DNA from: an uncultured Bacilli bacterium
GTDB lineage: Bacteria > Bacillota_I > Bacilli_A > RF39 > UBA660
DNA: 64,000 bases
Assembly: GCA_944363635.1 (NCBI GenBank)
Contig: CALVUP010000002.1
Location: 21,974 to 85,973, forward strand
Direction of reading: 5' to 3'
Positions within the stretch are counted from its first letter, which is position 1, and every line of letters starts with the position of its first letter. Shown in pieces: positions 6,427-53,098 of the stretch. A program made the position numbers and the translations under genes. The notes under the pieces are model-generated. The model was not told the origin of the DNA. It ran no database searches and saw nothing but the letters and a program-made list of their open reading frames with translations.

Positions 6427-6507
6427 ATGCATTCCCCCGTAAATAATATACTATTATTATAGCATTTATTGGATAAACTGTAAATCCAATTACGATTAAG
6501 TTTTTTT

Positions 6508-6521
6508 ATTTCCCGGGAAAT
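6508..6521. promoter_or_regulatory. Noc-binding-site-like palindrome ATTTCCCGGGAAAT (extended TTATTTCCCGGGAAATAA, 6506-6523)
   Basis: Perfect 14-bp match to the B. subtilis NBS consensus, abutting the tadA stop codon ~80 bp upstream of dnaX. Confidence 0.6.
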
Positions 6522-6524
6522 AAT

Positions 6525-6956: not shown

Positions 6957-6968
6957 AAAATCACCCAT

Positions 6969-7050
6969 AAAAAATGACGCACATAAAAATGAATTATTAA
7001 GGCTGCTACTTTCCAGTCCTGACCTGATTCTAATTATTCTTATTGCGTCT
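6969..7050 (-). ncRNA. ffs: small SRP RNA (4.5S-type, ~80 nt)
   Basis: Minus-strand read 5'-GACGCA..AUCAGGUCAGGACUGGAAAGUAGCAGCC..UGCGUC-UUUUUU closely matches SRP RNA domain IV (E. coli CAGGUCAGGUCCGGAAGGAAGCAGCC) with a GGAA tetraloop. Closing helix GACGCA/UGCGUC, 3' U-tract, and a TTGAAA-17-TATTAT promoter placing the TSS at about 7050. Confidence 0.7.
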
Positions 7051-7055
7051 TAGTT

Positions 7056-7084: not shown

Positions 7085-7101
7085 GTTTTTTATTCGTTCA
7101 A

Positions 7102-7117
7102 TGTTTCACGTGAAACA
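7102..7117. promoter_or_regulatory. parS site 1 (TGTTTCACGTGAAACA)
   Basis: Perfect 16-bp match to the Spo0J/ParB parS consensus, inside a 26-bp perfect palindrome (7097-7122). Confidence 0.85.
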
Positions 7118-7170
7118 TTGAATATATTATCGAATAAACTTTACTTTTTTTTGTAAATGATTAAAAAATT

Positions 7171-7184
7171 ATTTCCCAGGAAAT
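7171..7184. promoter_or_regulatory. NBS-like site (ATTTCCCAGGAAAT, one mismatch)
   Basis: 13/14 match to ATTTCCCGGGAAAT, in repeat unit 1. Confidence 0.5.
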
Positions 7185-7217
7185 ATTTTAAATAAAACGA
7201 GTATTTATTACTAATAA

Positions 7218-7233
7218 TGTTTCACGTGAAACA
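7218..7233. promoter_or_regulatory. parS site 2 (TGTTTCACGTGAAACA)
   Basis: Perfect parS consensus in repeat unit 2. Confidence 0.85.
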
Positions 7234-7283
7234 TTGAATATATTATTAAATAAACTTTATTTTTTTATAAATGATTAAAAATT

Positions 7284-7297
7284 ATTTCCCAGGAAAT
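7284..7297. promoter_or_regulatory. NBS-like site (ATTTCCCAGGAAAT)
   Basis: 13/14 match to the NBS, in repeat unit 2. Confidence 0.5.
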
Positions 7298-7330
7298 ATT
7301 TTAAATAAAATGAATGTTTATTATTAATAA

Positions 7331-7346
7331 TGTTTCACGTGAAACA
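7331..7346. promoter_or_regulatory. parS site 3 (TGTTTCACGTGAAACA)
   Basis: Perfect parS consensus in repeat unit 3. Confidence 0.85.
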
Positions 7347-7398
7347 TTGAATATTTTTTTTTGAACATAGCCTATTTTGAATAAATATTCAAAATTTT

Positions 7399-7412
7399 AT
7401 TTCCCGGGAAAT
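7399..7412. promoter_or_regulatory. NBS site (ATTTCCCGGGAAAT; 22-bp perfect palindrome 7396-7417)
   Basis: Perfect NBS consensus 10 bp downstream of the gyrA stop. Confidence 0.6.
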
Positions 7413-7426
7413 AAAAAGAAGAAATT

Positions 7427-9886
7427 TTAAACTTCTTCTTTTTCTTCCTCAATATCAATATTATTTGTGTCTTCTTCCTGTTCTACAATAGCAATTGTTG
7501 ATACTTTTTGATTATCCTTTAAATGAATTAATCTTACACCTTGCGTAGATCTTTTTAATGTTGATACTTGTTCAAGAGGCATTTTTATAATAATTCCACT
7601 ATCAGTAATAATCATAATATCAAAGTTTTTGTTTTTATCTACACACTTCAAAGAAACCATCATTCCATTTTTCTCTGTGATATTTAATGCTTTAACACCT
7701 TTGCTACCTCTATGTGTTAATCGATACTCATCAATATCTGTTTGTTTTCCATATCCATTTTCAGTAACAACTAAAATATTACTATCTGTTTGAACGACTT
7801 CTCCACTAATAACACAACTATTGTCTAAGTCAATTCCTTTTACTCCAGATGCTGATCGGCCCATTACACGAATTTCGCTTTCTTTAAATCGAACCAATCG
7901 ACCATTATTCGCACCAATAATAATTTCATTATTACCAGTTGTCGCGCGTACACTAATTAATTCATCTTCTTCACGAAGAGTAATTGCGAGTTTTCCTGAT
8001 TTTCGAATTCGATCAAATTCGTTTAAAACCGTTCTCTTAACAATTCCGAATTTAGTAATAAACACTAAGTATTTATTTACTTCGTTATCACGAGATAGTC
8101 CAATTATCGAACTAATGTTCTCATTTTTCTCTAGTGGTAATAAATTGACAATCGGCAATCCCTTTGATTGTCTACTAAATTCTGGCACTTCATAACCTTT
8201 TATTCTATAAACTCTACCTTTATTCGAGAAGAATAATAAATAATCATGCGTTTTCATAGATATCAAGTGTTCGACAAAATCCTCCCCATTGGTAGACATC
8301 CCTTTAACACCAACTCCACCTCTATTTTGTGTTTTATATGTATTGTATTTCAATCTCTTTATATATCCTTTATTCGTCAATGTAACAATTACATCTTCAT
8401 TTGGAATTAACGATTCATCTTCTATATAATCAATAGCTGTCATATCAATGCTTGTTCTTCTTTCATCTCCATATTTATTCTTAATTTCAAGCATTTCTTT
8501 TTTAATAATTTCAAGAACTTTAGCTTCACTAGCTAAAATAGATCTTAATTCATCAATTTCTGCTAATAATTCTTTTAATTCATTTTCAATTTTATCTCTT
8601 TCTAAGCCAGTTAATCTTCTAAGTTTCATTTCAAGTATAGCTTGTCCTTGAGGTTCTGTTAAAGCAAAACGACTCATCAATCCTGCTAAAGCTTCAGTAT
8701 CACTTTTAGATTCTCTTATTAATTTAACAATAGCATCAATATGATCTAAAGCAATCTTTAAGCCTTCTAATATATGTGCTCTTTTTTCATCTTTATCCAA
8801 ATCAAATTTTGTTCTTCTAATAATGATTTCTTTTTGATAATCAATATATTTAGCAATAATATCTTTTAAACCTAAAGTTTTAGGGACTCCTTGATCTAAC
8901 ATCAAAAAGATAATACCATAATTTGTTTGAAAAGCTGTATGCTTATATAGATTGTTTAATACAACTTGTGGATTTGCATCTTTTTTTAATGTTATGGTTA
9001 TTTTGACACCATCTTTTAAATCCGTATGATAATCTGTAATGCCATCAATAACTTTATTATGAACCAATTCTGCAACTTTATTTTTTAATTCTAAAGTATT
9101 AATTCCATAAGGAACCTCATCCACAATAATATAATGTCTACCATTTTTTTCTTCAATAGTAGCTCGACTGCGAATAGTAATAGTTCCTCGTCCGGTTTCA
9201 TAGGCTTTTTTAATTCCACTATTTCCTAAGATAATTCCGCCCGTTGGAAAGTCTGGACCCTTTATATATTGCATTAATCCATCTAAATCAATATCCGGAT
9301 TATCAATGTATGCTACACACCCATCGATAACTTCTCCTAAATTATGAGGTGGAATATTCGTAGCCATACCAACAGCAATTCCCATAGTCCCATTTACTAA
9401 AATATTAGGAAAACGAGAAGGAAGAATCTCTGGTTCTTTCTCAGATTCATCAAAGTTAGGTATAAAATTTACTGTATCTTTATTAATATTTCTTAATAAT
9501 TCTAAAGAAATTTTAGAAAGCCTTGATTCGGTATAACGCATAGCTGCAGCCCCATATCCTTCGATATTTCCGAAATTACCATGGCCATCTACAAGCATAT
9601 AACGATAAGAAAAATCTTGTGCCATTCTTACCATAGCTTCATAAATAGAAGAATCTCCATGTGGATGATATTTTCCCATAACATCTCCAACAATTCTAGC
9701 ACTTTTTTTATGAGGTTTATCTGGAGTATATCCTGATTCATACATAGAATATAAAATTCTTCGATGTACTGGTTTTAATCCATCTCTTAAATCAGGTAAT
9801 GCTCTAGCAACAATAACACTCATTGAATACTCAAGAAATGAATCTCTAACTTCTTTAACTATATTGTTTTTTTCTAATCTATCCAT
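7427..9886 (-). CDS. gyrA: DNA gyrase subunit A
   Basis: 819 aa, catalytic tyrosine region AAMRYTE, C-terminal beta-pinwheel repeats. Confidence 0.95.
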
Positions 9887-13055: not shown

Positions 13056-13529
13056 TTATTTCATAAAATAGATATTCTTTTGATCCGTCGTACGATTTCT
13101 TAGTACCGATTCTAATCTTGTGGATCGTAAAATCTGATTTTCAATAGATCGATAAGAAACAGGAACATTCATTTTTTTCCCTTCTTTAAAATAAAGGTTT
13201 GTTGTATGATTTTCTCCTTTTTCTATTTTTTGAATATTATGCAAGGAAATCCAGATACAAGAATCTAATGCAGGTGATTCCGTTGGGAAAAAAATAATAT
13301 AATTTTCTTCTTTTACTATAATAGGTACTTTATAACTAGAACCTAATATATTTTGACTTCCACCTTTTCGCCCTTCATATGTGCTTCCAAAATATTGACA
13401 ACTCGCATCCATAATTTCATATGGATTTTTCTCCACAACAAATTCATAATCCTTTTCTAATACTTTCGTTTTCTTTTTATCAATTGGTAAAATAACTAAA
13501 GTATCCTCATTAATTTCATAACTTTTCAT
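13056..13529 (-). CDS. comK: ComK-family competence transcription factor homologue
   Basis: SYEINEDTLVILP, CQYFGSTYEGRKGGS, IIFFPTESP..C.WIS and VPVSYRSIENQ blocks align with B. subtilis ComK (SYEVNGATIAVLP, CRFFGSSYAGRKAGT, IFLFPT, LPISYNSFENQ). Confidence 0.75.
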   Translation of the reverse strand: MKSYEINEDTLVILPIDKKKTKVLEKDYEFVVEKNPYEIMDASCQYFGSTYEGRKGGSQNILGSSYKVPIIVKEENYIIFFPTESPALDSCIWISLHNIQKIEKGENHTTNLYFKEGKKMNVPVSYRSIENQILRSTRLESVLRNRTTDQKNIYFMK

Positions 13530-14731: not shown

Positions 14732-14854
14732 ATTATCACTCTTTCTTTTTTATATTTTTATTATTATTACTGTGGAAATTGTTGATAACCTCTTTTTACT
14801 CTTATTTTATAATGTTTTTGTTTATTATCCCCTGTTTATTTCTTGTAGATAATT

Positions 14855-16321: not shown

Positions 16322-16439
16322 TTATTCACAATAAATTCACAGGATTATCCACAATTATTTTCCTTATATAATAAAGAATTTATAAATTTTCCACAAATAT
16401 GAATTTCTTTTTCCACAAGAGATTTAAAAATTATTCACA
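16322..16439 (+). other. oriC: oriC DnaA-box cluster (six TTWTYCACA boxes, same orientation)
   Basis: TTATTCACA 16322, AAATTCACA 16333, TTATCCACA 16345 (perfect), TTTTCCACA 16387, TTTTCCACA 16409, TTATTCACA 16431. All lie in the AT-rich dnaA-rpmH intergenic region. Confidence 0.8.
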
Positions 16440-18632: not shown

Positions 18633-18656
18633 AAGACAAATTTTGTCTTTTTTTTA
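18633..18656 (+). terminator. rho-independent terminator after khpB
   Basis: AGACAAA/TTTGTCT stem followed by a T8 run. Confidence 0.6.
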
Positions 18657-18669
18657 TTTCCCGGGAAAT
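18656..18669. promoter_or_regulatory. NBS site ATTTCCCGGGAAAT (extended TTATTTCCCGGGAAATAA)
   Basis: Perfect NBS consensus directly after the khpB terminator, ~60 bp upstream of mnmE. Confidence 0.6.
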
Positions 18670-18729
18670 AATTTATTGAAAAAAGAAAGGGATTGTAATA
18701 TAATACGTATGAGTTAGGGAGGGATTTTT

Positions 18730-20085: not shown

Positions 20086-20093
20086 AAAAAATT

Positions 20094-20107
20094 ATTTCCC
20101 GGGAAAT
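20094..20107. promoter_or_regulatory. NBS site ATTTCCCGGGAAAT (24-bp perfect palindrome 20088-20111)
   Basis: Perfect NBS consensus 9 bp after the mnmE stop and ~25 bp before mnmG. Confidence 0.6.
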
Positions 20108-20134
20108 AATTTAATAAAATGGAAGTGAAAATAT

Positions 20135-22732: not shown

Positions 22733-24055
22733 ATGTTTATGGATAACAGTAATGAAAAAAACGAAGTAGTTTATTTATATTTAGATGATATCATTCCAAA
22801 TCGATTTCAACCAAGAGAAAGATTTGATGAGGGGGCATTAAGGGAATTAGCAGCTTCGATCAAAGAACACGGAGTTATTCAACCAATTATTGTTCGAAAA
22901 ATCGGAGACAAATATGAGATCATTGCTGGAGAAAGAAGATATAAAGCTTCCGCTTTAGCAGGACTTACAAAAATCCCTGCAATTATTCGAAATTTAGATG
23001 ATAAAGAATCAAGTAAAGTAGCCCTTTTGGAAAATTTACAAAGAAAAAATTTAAGTCCAATAGAGGAAGCACGAACTTATCAAAAAATCTTAGATTTGGA
23101 TCAAATGACACAGTTTGAATTAGCAAAAACCATGGGAAAATCACAACCCGTTGTAGCAAATAAATTAAGATTGCTTACTCTTCCTGATGAGGTACAAGAA
23201 GCGTTATTAAAAGAGCAAATTTCAGAAAGACATGCCCGTAGTTTATTAGCGCTAAATAACGCAGAAGATCAAATAGAGATGCTACATAAAATAATTAATA
23301 ATCGGATGACAGTTCGTGAAACGGATGAAGAAATAAGAAAAATGACAAATACTGCAAATTTTGGATTACCAGGATTAGAAAGTACACATGTTGAGAAAAC
23401 AGAACCTAAAAATCAAATGGAGCAACCAATGCCAAAACCTACACAAATCAATGTTCAACCACAAAAAAGTACTGTAATGCCACAAATGCCAAACTATGAA
23501 GTCAATCAAAATATTGCTACTATTCCAGATGTGAACACATTAAGAGAACAGGCTGTGGATATAAACGATTTAAACAAAATGCCTACGAATGTTGCTCCAA
23601 CAGCTGTATCTCAAAATGAAGGAAAACAAGAAGAAGCAATTCAACCTGTATTACCTGAAATATCTGAAAGTGATCAGGATAAACCATTTATTGATTTAGA
23701 AGAACTGTTAAAAACACCAGAGACTGTACCTATTGAAGAACAACCACCAAAGCAAGATCCACCAAAAGAAGAAACCGAAGAGTTATTAGAAAAAATTGAA
23801 ACATCTGAATCTCAAGCATTAGAAGAAACCTTAGATGTTGAAAAATTAGATGACACACCAAAGCCAAAAGCTTCAGAGGAAAAGCCATTACCTTCTGTTA
23901 TAGATACAAAATCAATAAATGTATTTGATTTACGATTAGCAATTTCAACGATTCGAGATACAATTAAACAATTAGAAGATAAAGGAATAAATATAGATAC
24001 TGAGGAAATTGATTTTGAAGACCATTATCAAATAGTAGTCAAAATTCAAAAATAA
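22733..24055 (+). CDS. noc: Noc-like ParB paralogue with a long acidic/Pro-rich internal insertion
   Basis: ParB N-domain GERRYKA. The HTH region GKSQPVVANKLRLLTLP aligns with B. subtilis Noc (GKGQSTIANKLRLLKLP), not with Spo0J. C-terminal dimerisation segment is also Noc-like. A ~190-aa low-complexity insertion lies between them. Start at 22733 or 22739. Confidence 0.7.
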   Translation: MFMDNSNEKNEVVYLYLDDIIPNRFQPRERFDEGALRELAASIKEHGVIQPIIVRKIGDKYEIIAGERRYKASALAGLTKIPAIIRNLDDKESSKVALLENLQRKNLSPIEEARTYQKILDLDQMTQFELAKTMGKSQPVVANKLRLLTLPDEVQEALLKEQISERHARSLLALNNAEDQIEMLHKIINNRMTVRETDEEIRKMTNTANFGLPGLESTHVEKTEPKNQMEQPMPKPTQINVQPQKSTVMPQMPNYEVNQNIATIPDVNTLREQAVDINDLNKMPTNVAPTAVSQNEGKQEEAIQPVLPEISESDQDKPFIDLEELLKTPETVPIEEQPPKQDPPKEETEELLEKIETSESQALEETLDVEKLDDTPKPKASEEKPLPSVIDTKSINVFDLRLAISTIRDTIKQLEDKGINIDTEEIDFEDHYQIVVKIQK

Positions 24056-24164: not shown

Positions 24165-24953
24165 ATGAGTAAAGTTATTTCGTTAGTAAATCAAAAAGGA
24201 GGAGTCGGTAAAACGACGACAAGCATAAACTTATCATCTTCTTTAGCAGTATTAGGAAAAAGAGTATTATTAATCGATTTAGATCCTCAAGGAAATACAA
24301 CCACAGGTATAGGAATTAATAAAGGAGAAATAGACAAAAGTATTTATGATGTGTTAACTGGGAATTGTACAATACAAGAAGCAATGGTAAAAACAAAATA
24401 TCAAAATTTATTTGTATTACCATCATCTATTAATTTAGCGGGAATTGATATGGAATTAATGGAAAAAAGTAGAAATGATGTTACTTATGATAAAAGAAGA
24501 CAATTAAAAAAGCATTTAGATACTGTCTCAGATTATTTTGATTTTGTAATTATTGATTGTCCACCTTCTTTAGGATTAATCACGACCAACGCTTTAACAG
24601 CTTCTAACTCAGTAATGATACCCGTTCAATGTGAATTTTACGCTTTAGAGGGAATTACGCAATTGTTAAATACAATTATATTGGCCCAAAAAAACTTAAA
24701 TCCAAATCTTGAAATTGAAGGAGTTCTATTAACTATGTTGGATTCAAGAACCAATTTGGGATTAGAAATTGTTGAAGAAATACGAAAATATTTTAAAGAA
24801 AAAGTATATGATACAATCATTCCTAGATTAATTCGTTTATCTGAAGCACCATCTCATGGAAAACCTATCATTGCTTACGATCCTAAAAGTAGAGGTGCAG
24901 AGGCTTATCTAAATTTAGCAAAGGAAGTGATTTCTAAGAATGGAAACGTCTAA
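24165..24953 (+). CDS. soj: chromosome partitioning ATPase ParA/Soj
   Basis: Deviant Walker A KGGVGKTTT, 262 aa. Confidence 0.9.
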   Translation: MSKVISLVNQKGGVGKTTTSINLSSSLAVLGKRVLLIDLDPQGNTTTGIGINKGEIDKSIYDVLTGNCTIQEAMVKTKYQNLFVLPSSINLAGIDMELMEKSRNDVTYDKRRQLKKHLDTVSDYFDFVIIDCPPSLGLITTNALTASNSVMIPVQCEFYALEGITQLLNTIILAQKNLNPNLEIEGVLLTMLDSRTNLGLEIVEEIRKYFKEKVYDTIIPRLIRLSEAPSHGKPIIAYDPKSRGAEAYLNLAKEVISKNGNV

Positions 24954-25818
24954 AAGAAGAGCTTTAGGTAGAGGATTGGAAGAATTATTTAGTAATGAAC
25001 CTATTGCTTATAATAAAGTAGAAAGTAAAATATTAGAAGAAACACCAAAAGAAAACATAGTAGAATTAAATTTGGATGAATTAAGGGCAAATCCTTATCA
25101 ACCAAGAAAAGTCTTTGATGAAGAAGCACTAAAAGAGTTAGCAGCTTCTATTAAAGAACATGGTGTTTTTCAACCAATCATTGCAAAAAAAAGTATAAAA
25201 GGTTATGAAATTATTGCTGGAGAAAGAAGAGTAAAAGCTTCAAAACTAGCAGGATTAAAAACAATTCCAGCCATTGTTCGAGATTTTACAGACAATGAAA
25301 TGATGGAAATTGCCCTTCTAGAGAACTTACAAAGGGAAAATTTAACTGCTATAGAAGAAGCTGAAGCATATAAAAATTTGTTAGATACATTAGATATAAC
25401 CCAAGAAAAGTTAGCAGAACGAATTGGCAAAAGTCGTAGTTATATTACCAATATGCTTGGGTTATTAAACTTACCAGATAATGTTAAAAAACTACTTGAA
25501 GAAAAAAAGATTACGATGAGTCATGCTCGAGTTTTAAGTAAAATTGAGGATGAACAAAAAATTACGGAGCTTGCTAATAAGATTATAGCAGAAAATTTAA
25601 ATGTTCGTGATATAGAAGAAATTTCCAAAGATCATCATATCAAAAAGACAAAAGAAAATAAAAAGCATAGTGAAACAAATGAATATACTTATATTGAAAA
25701 TGAATTGTGTGAAAAATTTGGTACAAAAGTAAAAGTAAAAACAAACAAATTAGAAATTTCCTTTTCCAACATTAATGATTTAAATAGAATATTAGAAATC
25801 ATGAAGATTCATTTATAG
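24940..25818 (+). CDS. spo0J: chromosome partitioning protein ParB/Spo0J
   Basis: GERR box, HTH GKSRSYITNMLGLLNLP with ParB-type R/T specificity residues. Confidence 0.9.
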   Translation: METSKRRALGRGLEELFSNEPIAYNKVESKILEETPKENIVELNLDELRANPYQPRKVFDEEALKELAASIKEHGVFQPIIAKKSIKGYEIIAGERRVKASKLAGLKTIPAIVRDFTDNEMMEIALLENLQRENLTAIEEAEAYKNLLDTLDITQEKLAERIGKSRSYITNMLGLLNLPDNVKKLLEEKKITMSHARVLSKIEDEQKITELANKIIAENLNVRDIEEISKDHHIKKTKENKKHSETNEYTYIENELCEKFGTKVKVKTNKLEISFSNINDLNRILEIMKIHL

Positions 25819-53020: not shown

Positions 53021-53098
53021 AAATAAAATTATTGATATAATAATTTCGCATTTAATTACTATGATTAATATTTAATCATGGCGGAAGGAGAGATAAGT

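Follow-up and report, generated by a model that had tools for sequence, protein, structure and literature searches.

The window analyzed here is a stretch of 64,000 nucleotides from a metagenome contig of an uncultured Bacilli bacterium (~28% guanine-cytosine (GC) content) and represents the origin region of the chromosome. The minus strand carries recR, ybaB, dnaX, tadA, the signal recognition particle (SRP) RNA gene, a tandem array of palindromes, gyrA, gyrB, recF, comK, dnaN and dnaA in this order, and the plus strand carries rnpA, yidC, jag, mnmE, mnmG, rsmG, a gene for a 440-residue ParB paralogue, soj and spo0J. The subject of this study is the array, which is flanked by the gyrA stop codon on one side and by a promoter-like site of the SRP RNA gene on the other and combines the ParB-loading site parS with the Noc-binding site (NBS) in each repeat unit. 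The GC skew changes sign at ~16 kb, at the DnaA-box cluster upstream of dnaA that we take as oriC, and a second DnaA-box cluster is located at positions 14780-14852. An earlier interpretation made from the DNA letters without database searches (the sequence-only reading) had put the array next to oriC, with spo0J, soj and a noc-like gene in the same window. The three genes are indeed present, and the array is origin-proximal, on the left of oriC, but it does not directly abut the origin, as 7.4-9 kb separate it from the DnaA-box clusters.

The array consists of 2.7 tandem units with a period of 113-116 bp (Table 1), and Tandem Repeats Finder describes it with a period of 113, either as 2.2 copies that are 92% identical or as 2.7 copies that are 86% identical. 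The sequence-only reading had described three direct repeats of ~115-120 bp, each with a perfect parS and, ~55 bp later, an NBS; the tandem repeats and all six sites are confirmed, whereas the period is shorter than proposed, each parS is separated from the NBS that follows it by 53, 50 and 52 bp, respectively, and only the third NBS is perfect. The parS core TGTTTCACGTGAAACA occurs three times as an exact match to the 16-bp Firmicutes-type consensus TGTTNCACGTGAAACA, and no further parS is present in the 64 kb even when two mismatches are allowed; the number expected from shuffles is 0.02. The NBS consensus is the palindrome ATTTCCCGGGAAAT (16-bp form, TATTTCCCGGGAAATA), from which the first two array sites (ATTTCCCAGGAAAT) deviate by a single mismatch at the central G. 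NBS-like sequences with up to two mismatches occur six times in the window, compared with 0.43 expected from shuffles. The three that lie outside the array are all perfect, intergenic and close to the origin, and no NBS is found between 20.1 and 64 kb. When the three units are aligned, AATGTTTCACGTGAAACATTGAATAT and TTATTTCCC[A/G]GGAAATA stand out as invariant blocks; the spacer of the third unit has diverged, and both palindromes with their immediate flanks have not. As to variation in copy number between strains, the one other assembly of this organism exhibits an identical array spacing, and an exact search with the tadA product of the window matched no record.

Table 1. Array, binding sites and associated genes, with positions in the 64,000-nucleotide window
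Feature	Position	Strand	Description
Tandem composite array	7098-7417		Defined by Tandem Repeats Finder and unit alignment; unit: parS, 50-53-bp spacer, NBS
parS-1	7097-7122		Perfect 26-bp palindrome; core TGTTTCACGTGAAACA at 7102-7117
NBS-1	7169-7186		Variant TTATTTCCCAGGAAATAT, central G to A; ATTTCCCAGGAAAT at 7171
parS-2	7216-7235		Perfect 20-bp palindrome; core at 7218-7233
NBS-2	7282-7299		Same TTATTTCCCAGGAAATAT variant as NBS-1; ATTTCCCAGGAAAT at 7284
parS-3	7329-7348		Perfect 20-bp palindrome; core at 7331-7346
NBS-3	7395-7416		Perfect 22-bp palindrome TTTTATTTCCCGGGAAATAAAA; ATTTCCCGGGAAAT at 7399; gyrA stop codon 11 bp away
Solitary perfect NBS	6506-6523		18-bp palindrome; dnaX-tadA intergenic region
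Solitary perfect NBS	18654-18671		jag-mnmE intergenic region; position kept in relatives (L123)
Solitary perfect NBS	20089-20112		24-bp palindrome AAATTATTTCCCGGGAAATAATTT; mnmE-mnmG intergenic region; also in relatives L122 and L123
DnaA-box cluster	16322-16439		Five boxes upstream of dnaA; taken as oriC
SRP RNA gene	6968-7054	-	Immediately downstream of the array; Rfam 59 bits
gyrA	7427-9886	-	3' end abuts the array
Noc-like ParB paralogue	22733-24055	+	440 amino acids
soj	24165-24953	+	ParA-type ATPase
spo0J/parB	24940-25818	+	292 amino acids

The composite layout is not peculiar to this organism. In 185,579 species, each represented by a single genome, we searched for a parS core with an NBS core 30-60 bp after it; the pattern is present at no fewer than 120 genome loci, and by a rough estimate the scanned database should contain well under one match by chance. 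Among the loci listed, 114 belong to low-GC metagenome-assembled genomes (MAGs) with mixed clusters, labelled uncultured Bacilli, Erysipelotrichaceae, 'Mycoplasma' or Tenericutes. No fewer than 114 species of low-GC, uncultured Bacilli from the gut, Candidatus Onthousia (Bacilli incertae sedis at NCBI) among them, have mixed parS/NBS clusters. The sequence-only reading had regarded the array as unusual, which holds for the interleaving of the two site types but not for the array as a one-off. In nearly all of the 114 loci, the cluster occupies the gyrA-tadA slot, the tadA-dnaX slot or both, and GyrA is 55-83% identical to that of the window. The main cluster has a median of three parS and two NBS in ~410 bp; among the loci listed, 63 contain at least two of each site, and alternating runs comprise four or more sites in 40 loci and ten or more in nine. 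The repeat number, which the sequence-only reading had singled out for comparison among relatives, does vary. Repeat periods of about 62, 76, 83, 105, 113-116 and 125-127 bp are found in different species, and the largest arrays contain 13.2 copies of an 83-bp repeat, on a closed chromosome of 1.31 Mb, and 10.7 copies of a 125-bp repeat. Three closed genomes carry arrays (OZ006970.1, OZ006981.1 and CP091739.1). Many arrays lie at the extreme ends of MAG contigs, and in one MAG a single array is split over two contigs; arrays evidently break short-read assemblies, and reported copy numbers are therefore lower bounds. As judged from these matches, the three units of the window are a modest example of a widespread class. 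A locus of Arthrobacter sp. ZGTC412, with eight parS-like sites in 8 kb beside parB, soj and rsmG, also matched the pattern and was rejected as an ordinary actinobacterial parS cluster and a chance match.

The two palindromes are constant from species to species, and the spacers bear no relation to one another. This observation bears on the possibility that the array is not a protein-binding site at all and is instead a neutral or selfish repeat, such as a repetitive extragenic palindromic (REP) element, a miniature inverted-repeat transposable element or a terminator hairpin. A tandem duplication in an AT-rich intergenic region beside the 3' end of gyrA is what such a repeat could look like. 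However, the syntenic slot is fixed in more than 100 species, the palindromes alone are conserved, and all seven perfect palindromes of at least 18 bp in the window are parS or NBS, with no other long-palindrome family found in the 64 kb. Furthermore, an Rfam search gives no match inside the array, and a promoter and terminator scan of the array region yields no excess over shuffles; an RNA or terminator role was rejected on these grounds. A mobile-element origin was likewise rejected, given that the composite pattern has 0 matches in 2.9 million viral contigs. A neutral repeat is thus effectively refuted, including the REP-like elements that the sequence-only reading had named as the outcome that would overturn its interpretation.

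The same data constrain a regulatory interpretation, in which the sites are operators and ParB-family clamps act like KorB to repress the promoters of the SRP RNA gene, tadA-dnaX, mnmE and mnmG. The promoter-like site of the SRP RNA gene (TTGAAA-17-TATTAT at 7084-7056) has its -35 element 18 bp from parS-1, which lies upstream of it, and all solitary NBS are intergenic, just upstream of or between genes. However, the position of the array relative to promoters differs by species, the 10-13 tandem sites of the largest arrays far exceed the need of an operator, and promoter-like hits in the region are no commoner than in shuffled sequence. We consider it very unlikely that the sites are operators; the array may still have a regulatory side-effect. 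Owing to the 18-bp distance, a ParB complex spreading from parS-1 would cover the SRP RNA promoter-like site.

The two site types are kept distinct across the clade. The clade parS consensus is A-TGTTTCACGTGAAACA-T and varies only at positions 1/16 and 5/12, which are known to be tolerant for ParB. NBS is perfect in 325 of 371 cases, and a further 36 carry the CCCAGG/CCTGGG variant that is also present in the window. The NBS is conserved as the 24-bp palindrome AAATTATTTCCCGGGAAATAATTT, and its flanks AAATT...AATTT are kept beyond the published 16-bp site (71-99% per position in loci L002-L244), suggesting extra contacts or a DNA-shape requirement. The general form of the core occurs 1,023 times in 1.67 Mb; pure parS accounts for 514 of these occurrences, pure NBS for 503 and hybrids for six, and none is a chimera of a parS half and an NBS half. 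Dual-specificity intermediates were therefore rejected, and the near-absence of hybrids is in line with two proteins that each recognize their own site type.

Which proteins are the readers? Spo0J of the window contains an N-terminal KRRALGRGLEELF peptide, a GKSR motif and the ParB C-terminal dimerization domain, and the arginine of GKSR is the parS-type residue that reads the parS guanine. The 440-residue paralogue occupies the noc position in the order rsmG(gidB)-noc-soj-spo0J, which is shared by relatives L122-L124, and its best solved-structure matches are Noc proteins (7nfu, 6e-63; 7ol9, 6e-53; compared with 1.7e-50 for Spo0J). Four residues, Q173/K179/K184/R201 in Caulobacter numbering, switch ParB to NBS specificity, and one lysine at either permissive position is enough (Jalal et al. 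2020, PMC7383237). The equivalent positions are Q158/K164/K169/R186 in B. subtilis Noc, and the Noc-like protein has Q, K, T and R there (GKSQ..ANKLRLL..SERHAR). The Q-K-x-R pattern together with ISERHAR is retained in 119 of the best 120 homologues, which are 332-507 amino acids long and include one fragment. The CTP-switch motifs GERRYKAS and ENLQR are invariant in the alignment, and CTP binding is predicted.

These residues also bear on the alternative that the NBS-like palindrome is read by ParB itself or by another factor, for instance as a roadblock or boundary that shapes ParB spreading. We infer rather than observe the binding of the Noc-like protein to NBS, one of its four specificity positions is not lysine, and the conserved AAATT...AATTT flanks could mean a different or larger footprint. 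However, 119 of the 120 homologues all have Q, K and R at the other three positions, and a single lysine is sufficient (Jalal 2020). ParB retains the arginine that reads the parS guanine, and the scarcity of hybrid sites (6/1,023) fits two specificities. Moreover, the core of the noc-like gene exceeds its neighbors in conservation (77-80%, against 67% for spo0J). The folded core of the protein is 77-84% identical in species whose Spo0J is ~67% and whose GyrA is 65-80% identical. A different NBS reader is thus improbable.

The Noc-like protein, by its sequence, is not a canonical Noc. Its alignment to Geobacillus Noc begins at residue 19 of the latter, so that most of alpha2 is absent along with the whole of alpha1, the amphipathic membrane-targeting helix without which canonical Noc cannot bind the membrane and occlude division, and its start codon is fixed by an in-frame upstream stop codon and a good ribosome-binding site. 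The N-terminus is short and acidic in all 119 homologues in which it is available. Between the DNA-binding domain and the Noc-type C-terminal domain, ~190 acidic, proline-rich residues are inserted, and the AlphaFold confidence score (pLDDT) falls below 50 over residues 209-395 of this linker. The linker is disordered and acidic throughout the clade, with a length of 130-280 residues. Despite very divergent linkers, the motif D[LIM][DE]x[LI]L[KN] (e.g., IDLEELLK) is present in 95 of the 120 homologues and the motif D[ILV]NxL[KR]xxAxDI (e.g., DVNTLREQAVDI) in 66. The window protein contains both, as IDLEELLK and DVNTLREQAVDINDL, and AlphaFold predicts a short helix at each. The D-L-D-x-L-L-K motif may resemble the FtsZ C-terminal peptide or the ParB N-terminal peptide, a likeness that plays no part in the reasoning here.

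The genomic distribution of NBS differs from that of a nucleoid-occlusion system. In B. subtilis, NBS are scattered around the chromosome (PMC4331003, PMC8429893), and the contig fragments analyzed here do not show such scatter. When metagenome contigs were searched with the NBS 18-mer alone, at least 120 loci were obtained. Of those listed, 98 have a GC content below 0.35; 82 of the 98 carry origin-region genes, and two more are short contigs made up of parS/NBS arrays alone. Among the low-GC matches listed, at least 86% thus lie within ~25 kb of oriC, in contrast to about 2% expected if NBS were spread over a genome of ~1.4 Mb. The recurrent contexts are the gyrA-tadA slot, both intergenic regions flanking mnmE, the recF/gyrB junction and dnaX, and the jag/mnmE context accounts for 11 loci among the matches listed. 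Within 10 kb on either side of noc in three relatives, no parS was found, and solitary NBS flank mnmE in two of the three; the third has no NBS in this span, and none of the three has an NBS in the 10 kb downstream of noc. One sub-lineage has a solitary NBS exactly at the gyrB/recF junction, and others have one in or next to dnaX or downstream of the homologue of window gene 471-1373. Solitary positions are lineage-specific yet always near the origin. At least 22 metagenome contigs with a higher GC content (0.36-0.62), which are unrelated to the clade, contain the exact 18-mer TTATTTCCCGGGAAATAA as well.

Canonical nucleoid occlusion is an alternative explanation: NBS would belong to a scattered set, division over the nucleoid would be blocked by a Noc-like protein that anchors DNA at the membrane, and NBS would lie beside parS by coincidence or as a result of tandem duplication. 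In its favor, the NBS core does not differ from the B. subtilis consensus, the noc-soj-spo0J synteny is kept, solitary NBS are also present, and 16 of the 98 low-GC loci have no origin marker. However, the origin bias described above, the loss of alpha1 and most of alpha2 throughout the clade, and a parS pairing that is conserved and phased in more than 100 species do not agree with such a system. We therefore regard canonical nucleoid occlusion as unlikely to operate here. Each of the alternatives considered in this study is contradicted by at least one tested feature.

The phasing of the paired sites is helical. Center-to-center distances between adjacent parS and NBS are periodic, with peaks near 25, 37, 47.5, 57.5 and 68 bp and troughs between them; in the window, they measure 68, 48, 65, 48 and 67 bp. 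In the periodogram, the maximum is at 10.5-10.75 bp, and the phase is 0.47 turn at 10.5 bp. The distances are thus close to n + 1/2 helical turns, which places the parS and NBS dyads on opposite faces of DNA. The phasing persists when one distance is taken per locus (median p = 3e-5) and when spacers are clustered by sequence identity (p = 7e-10 with a threshold of 80%, p = 2e-6 with one of 70%), and the phase is the same for distances under 43 bp and of 43-73 bp. Two sites of one type with a single site of the other type between them keep the same phase; for parS-NBS-parS, the phase is 0.04 (p = 0.005). No phasing is seen for parS sites that directly neighbor each other (R = 0.006), and NBS-NBS pairs are too few to judge. 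The data support half-turn phasing as a tendency, not a law.

Thus, we propose that the array is probably the centromere-like locus of this chromosome, built as a two-protein loading platform. The sequence-only reading had envisaged a ParB hub with Noc loading sites, and its proposal is supported by the motif identities, the specificity residues of the proteins and the conserved synteny. ParB and Noc are CTP-dependent clamps that nucleate at a 16-bp site, close and slide away. Spo0J dimers would load at parS, spread and build a partition complex that works with Soj and that probably loads SMC, as in other bacteria. The Noc-like protein would load likewise from the interleaved NBS, and, with the sites on opposite DNA faces, the two proteins could occupy neighboring sites together. 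The outcome would be a single dense mixed nucleoprotein complex ~8 kb from oriC, and the solitary NBS beyond oriC, which flank mnmE, would allow the Noc-like domain to bracket the origin. Loading, sliding and the interactions with Soj and SMC are extrapolated here from the established biochemistry of ParB and Noc.

Several observations weigh against this proposal. All members of the clade are uncultured, and we infer the DNA binding of both proteins. Two of the three array NBS carry a central mismatch that may affect binding, the second permissive specificity position of the Noc-like protein is T, S or A in place of K, and the protein scores 305.9 bits on the Noc model TIGR04285, just under the curated cut-off (315 bits); on the same model, the adjacent ParB reaches 247 bits. 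The strength of the phasing is moderate (R about 0.3), and its p-values are optimistic, given that the species share ancestry. Phasing is significant in the larger and pooled data only, and not in the NBS-only metagenome set alone (n = 41, p = 0.38), which includes one lineage with a spacing of 28-30 bp. The origin restriction of NBS is deduced from contig fragments rather than from a scan of closed genomes, and some of the 16 low-GC loci without an origin marker may be dispersed sites.

What would a Noc without its membrane helix do at such a platform? The layout common to more than 100 related species suggests that Noc here acts at the origin and not all along the chromosome, and because NBS itself is an origin-region motif in the clade, a classical nucleoid-occlusion role is doubtful. 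Given the missing membrane helix, the conserved core and the disordered linker with conserved motifs, the Noc-like protein is likely to be an origin-specific adaptor instead of a chromosome-wide nucleoid-occlusion factor. The partner of such an adaptor is a matter of speculation and might serve to position the origin or to control the division site or initiation. More tentatively, and with the balance of probability somewhat against so broad a statement, we suggest that the Noc of this large clade of small-genome gut Bacilli is not a nucleoid-occlusion factor but a second origin-dedicated CTP clamp, helix-less and with a long adaptor linker, that co-assembles with ParB on interleaved sites of opposite faces to form a two-protein centromere. 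The layout could be a relic of the time shortly after ParB and Noc diverged by duplication, when NBS arose beside parS by two base changes per half-site, before membrane binding and site dispersal.

Two other features of the window are recorded here. A ComK-family gene (13056-13529, minus strand; Pfam, 2e-45) lies between dnaN and recF in the core origin cluster, and tblastn places a copy at the same position in most related loci. An L31-Firmicutes ribosomal-protein leader (53059-53090, plus strand; Rfam, 35.1 bits against a gathering score of 33.3) is unrelated to the array.

ParB and Noc are the textbook pair for a duplicated DNA-binding protein that gained a new site and a new job. To our knowledge, Noc has so far been understood from Bacillus and Staphylococcus only, as a membrane-binding protein with dispersed sites. 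The clade offers a natural system, in more than 100 species, with interleaved site types at the centromere, origin-confined NBS and an anchor-less Noc. It raises the questions of whether two CTP clamps can load side by side and then help or block each other, what role a helix-less Noc has, and by which route parS/ParB gave rise to NBS/Noc function, and it is of high interest for research on the CTP switch of ParB and Noc and on the evolution of DNA-binding specificity. Annotation pipelines call the Noc-like proteins generic ParB, and these labels, together with arrays that break short-read assemblies, are probably why the pattern went unnoticed.

The partition components closely resemble the Spo0J/parS/Soj system of B. 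subtilis, with an identical 16-bp parS consensus, origin-proximal sites and a soj-spo0J operon, and the ParB protein shares the N-terminal ParA-stimulating peptide, the CTP motifs and the parS-reading arginine. B. subtilis has about ten parS dispersed over the origin-proximal chromosome, several of them intragenic. In contrast, the parS sites seen in the clade form one tandem intergenic cluster of 0.3-1.5 kb, and none lies in spo0J. A second comparison is the nucleoid-occlusion system of Noc and NBS in Bacillus subtilis and Geobacillus (Wu 2009; Adams 2015; Jalal 2020 and 2021). The protein of the window resembles these Noc proteins in its NBS core ATTTCCCGGGAAAT, gene position, Q/K/R residues, CTP motifs and Noc-type C-terminal domain. 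It differs from them in having lost alpha1 and the greater part of alpha2, in containing a disordered acidic linker and in scoring just below the TIGR04285 cut-off, and its NBS differ in that they are clustered around oriC, interleaved with parS and conserved in their flanks to 24 bp.

Iterated plasmid centromeres provide another comparison. In sopC of the F plasmid, for example, an inverted repeat bound by SopB is present in each of 12 tandem repeats of 43 bp. The array is like such centromeres in its tandem, homogenized repeats, each with a palindromic loading site for a ParB-family protein, and in its variable copy number, and unlike them in that it is chromosomal and each unit serves two paralogous proteins. 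An interleaving of sites for two ParB-family proteins is not known to us from any plasmid centromere. On chromosomes, Pseudomonas aeruginosa has four parS near oriC (PMC4368675), and Corynebacterium glutamicum has a chromosomal parS cluster (PMC7083940). These resemble the array as parS grouped near oriC, where they act as a centromere and SMC loading zone, but they extend over kilobases to tens of kilobases, are not tandem and have no second site type. Origin-tied functions of Noc and a concerted action of ParB and Noc also have precedents, given that Noc of Staphylococcus aureus regulates replication initiation (PMC5540599) and that Spo0J and Noc of B. subtilis jointly affect Z-ring placement (PMC6852036). 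The Noc proteins in these cases differ from that of the clade in being canonical and membrane-binding with dispersed sites, and no interleaved sites have been described for them. Full-text literature searches, with most subscription journals outside their coverage, turned up neither interleaved parS/NBS sites nor a helix-less Noc. Thus, parS, NBS, ParB and Noc are all known components, whereas their arrangement, interleaved, phased and origin-restricted and combined with a helix-less Noc that has a long linker, is apparently new.

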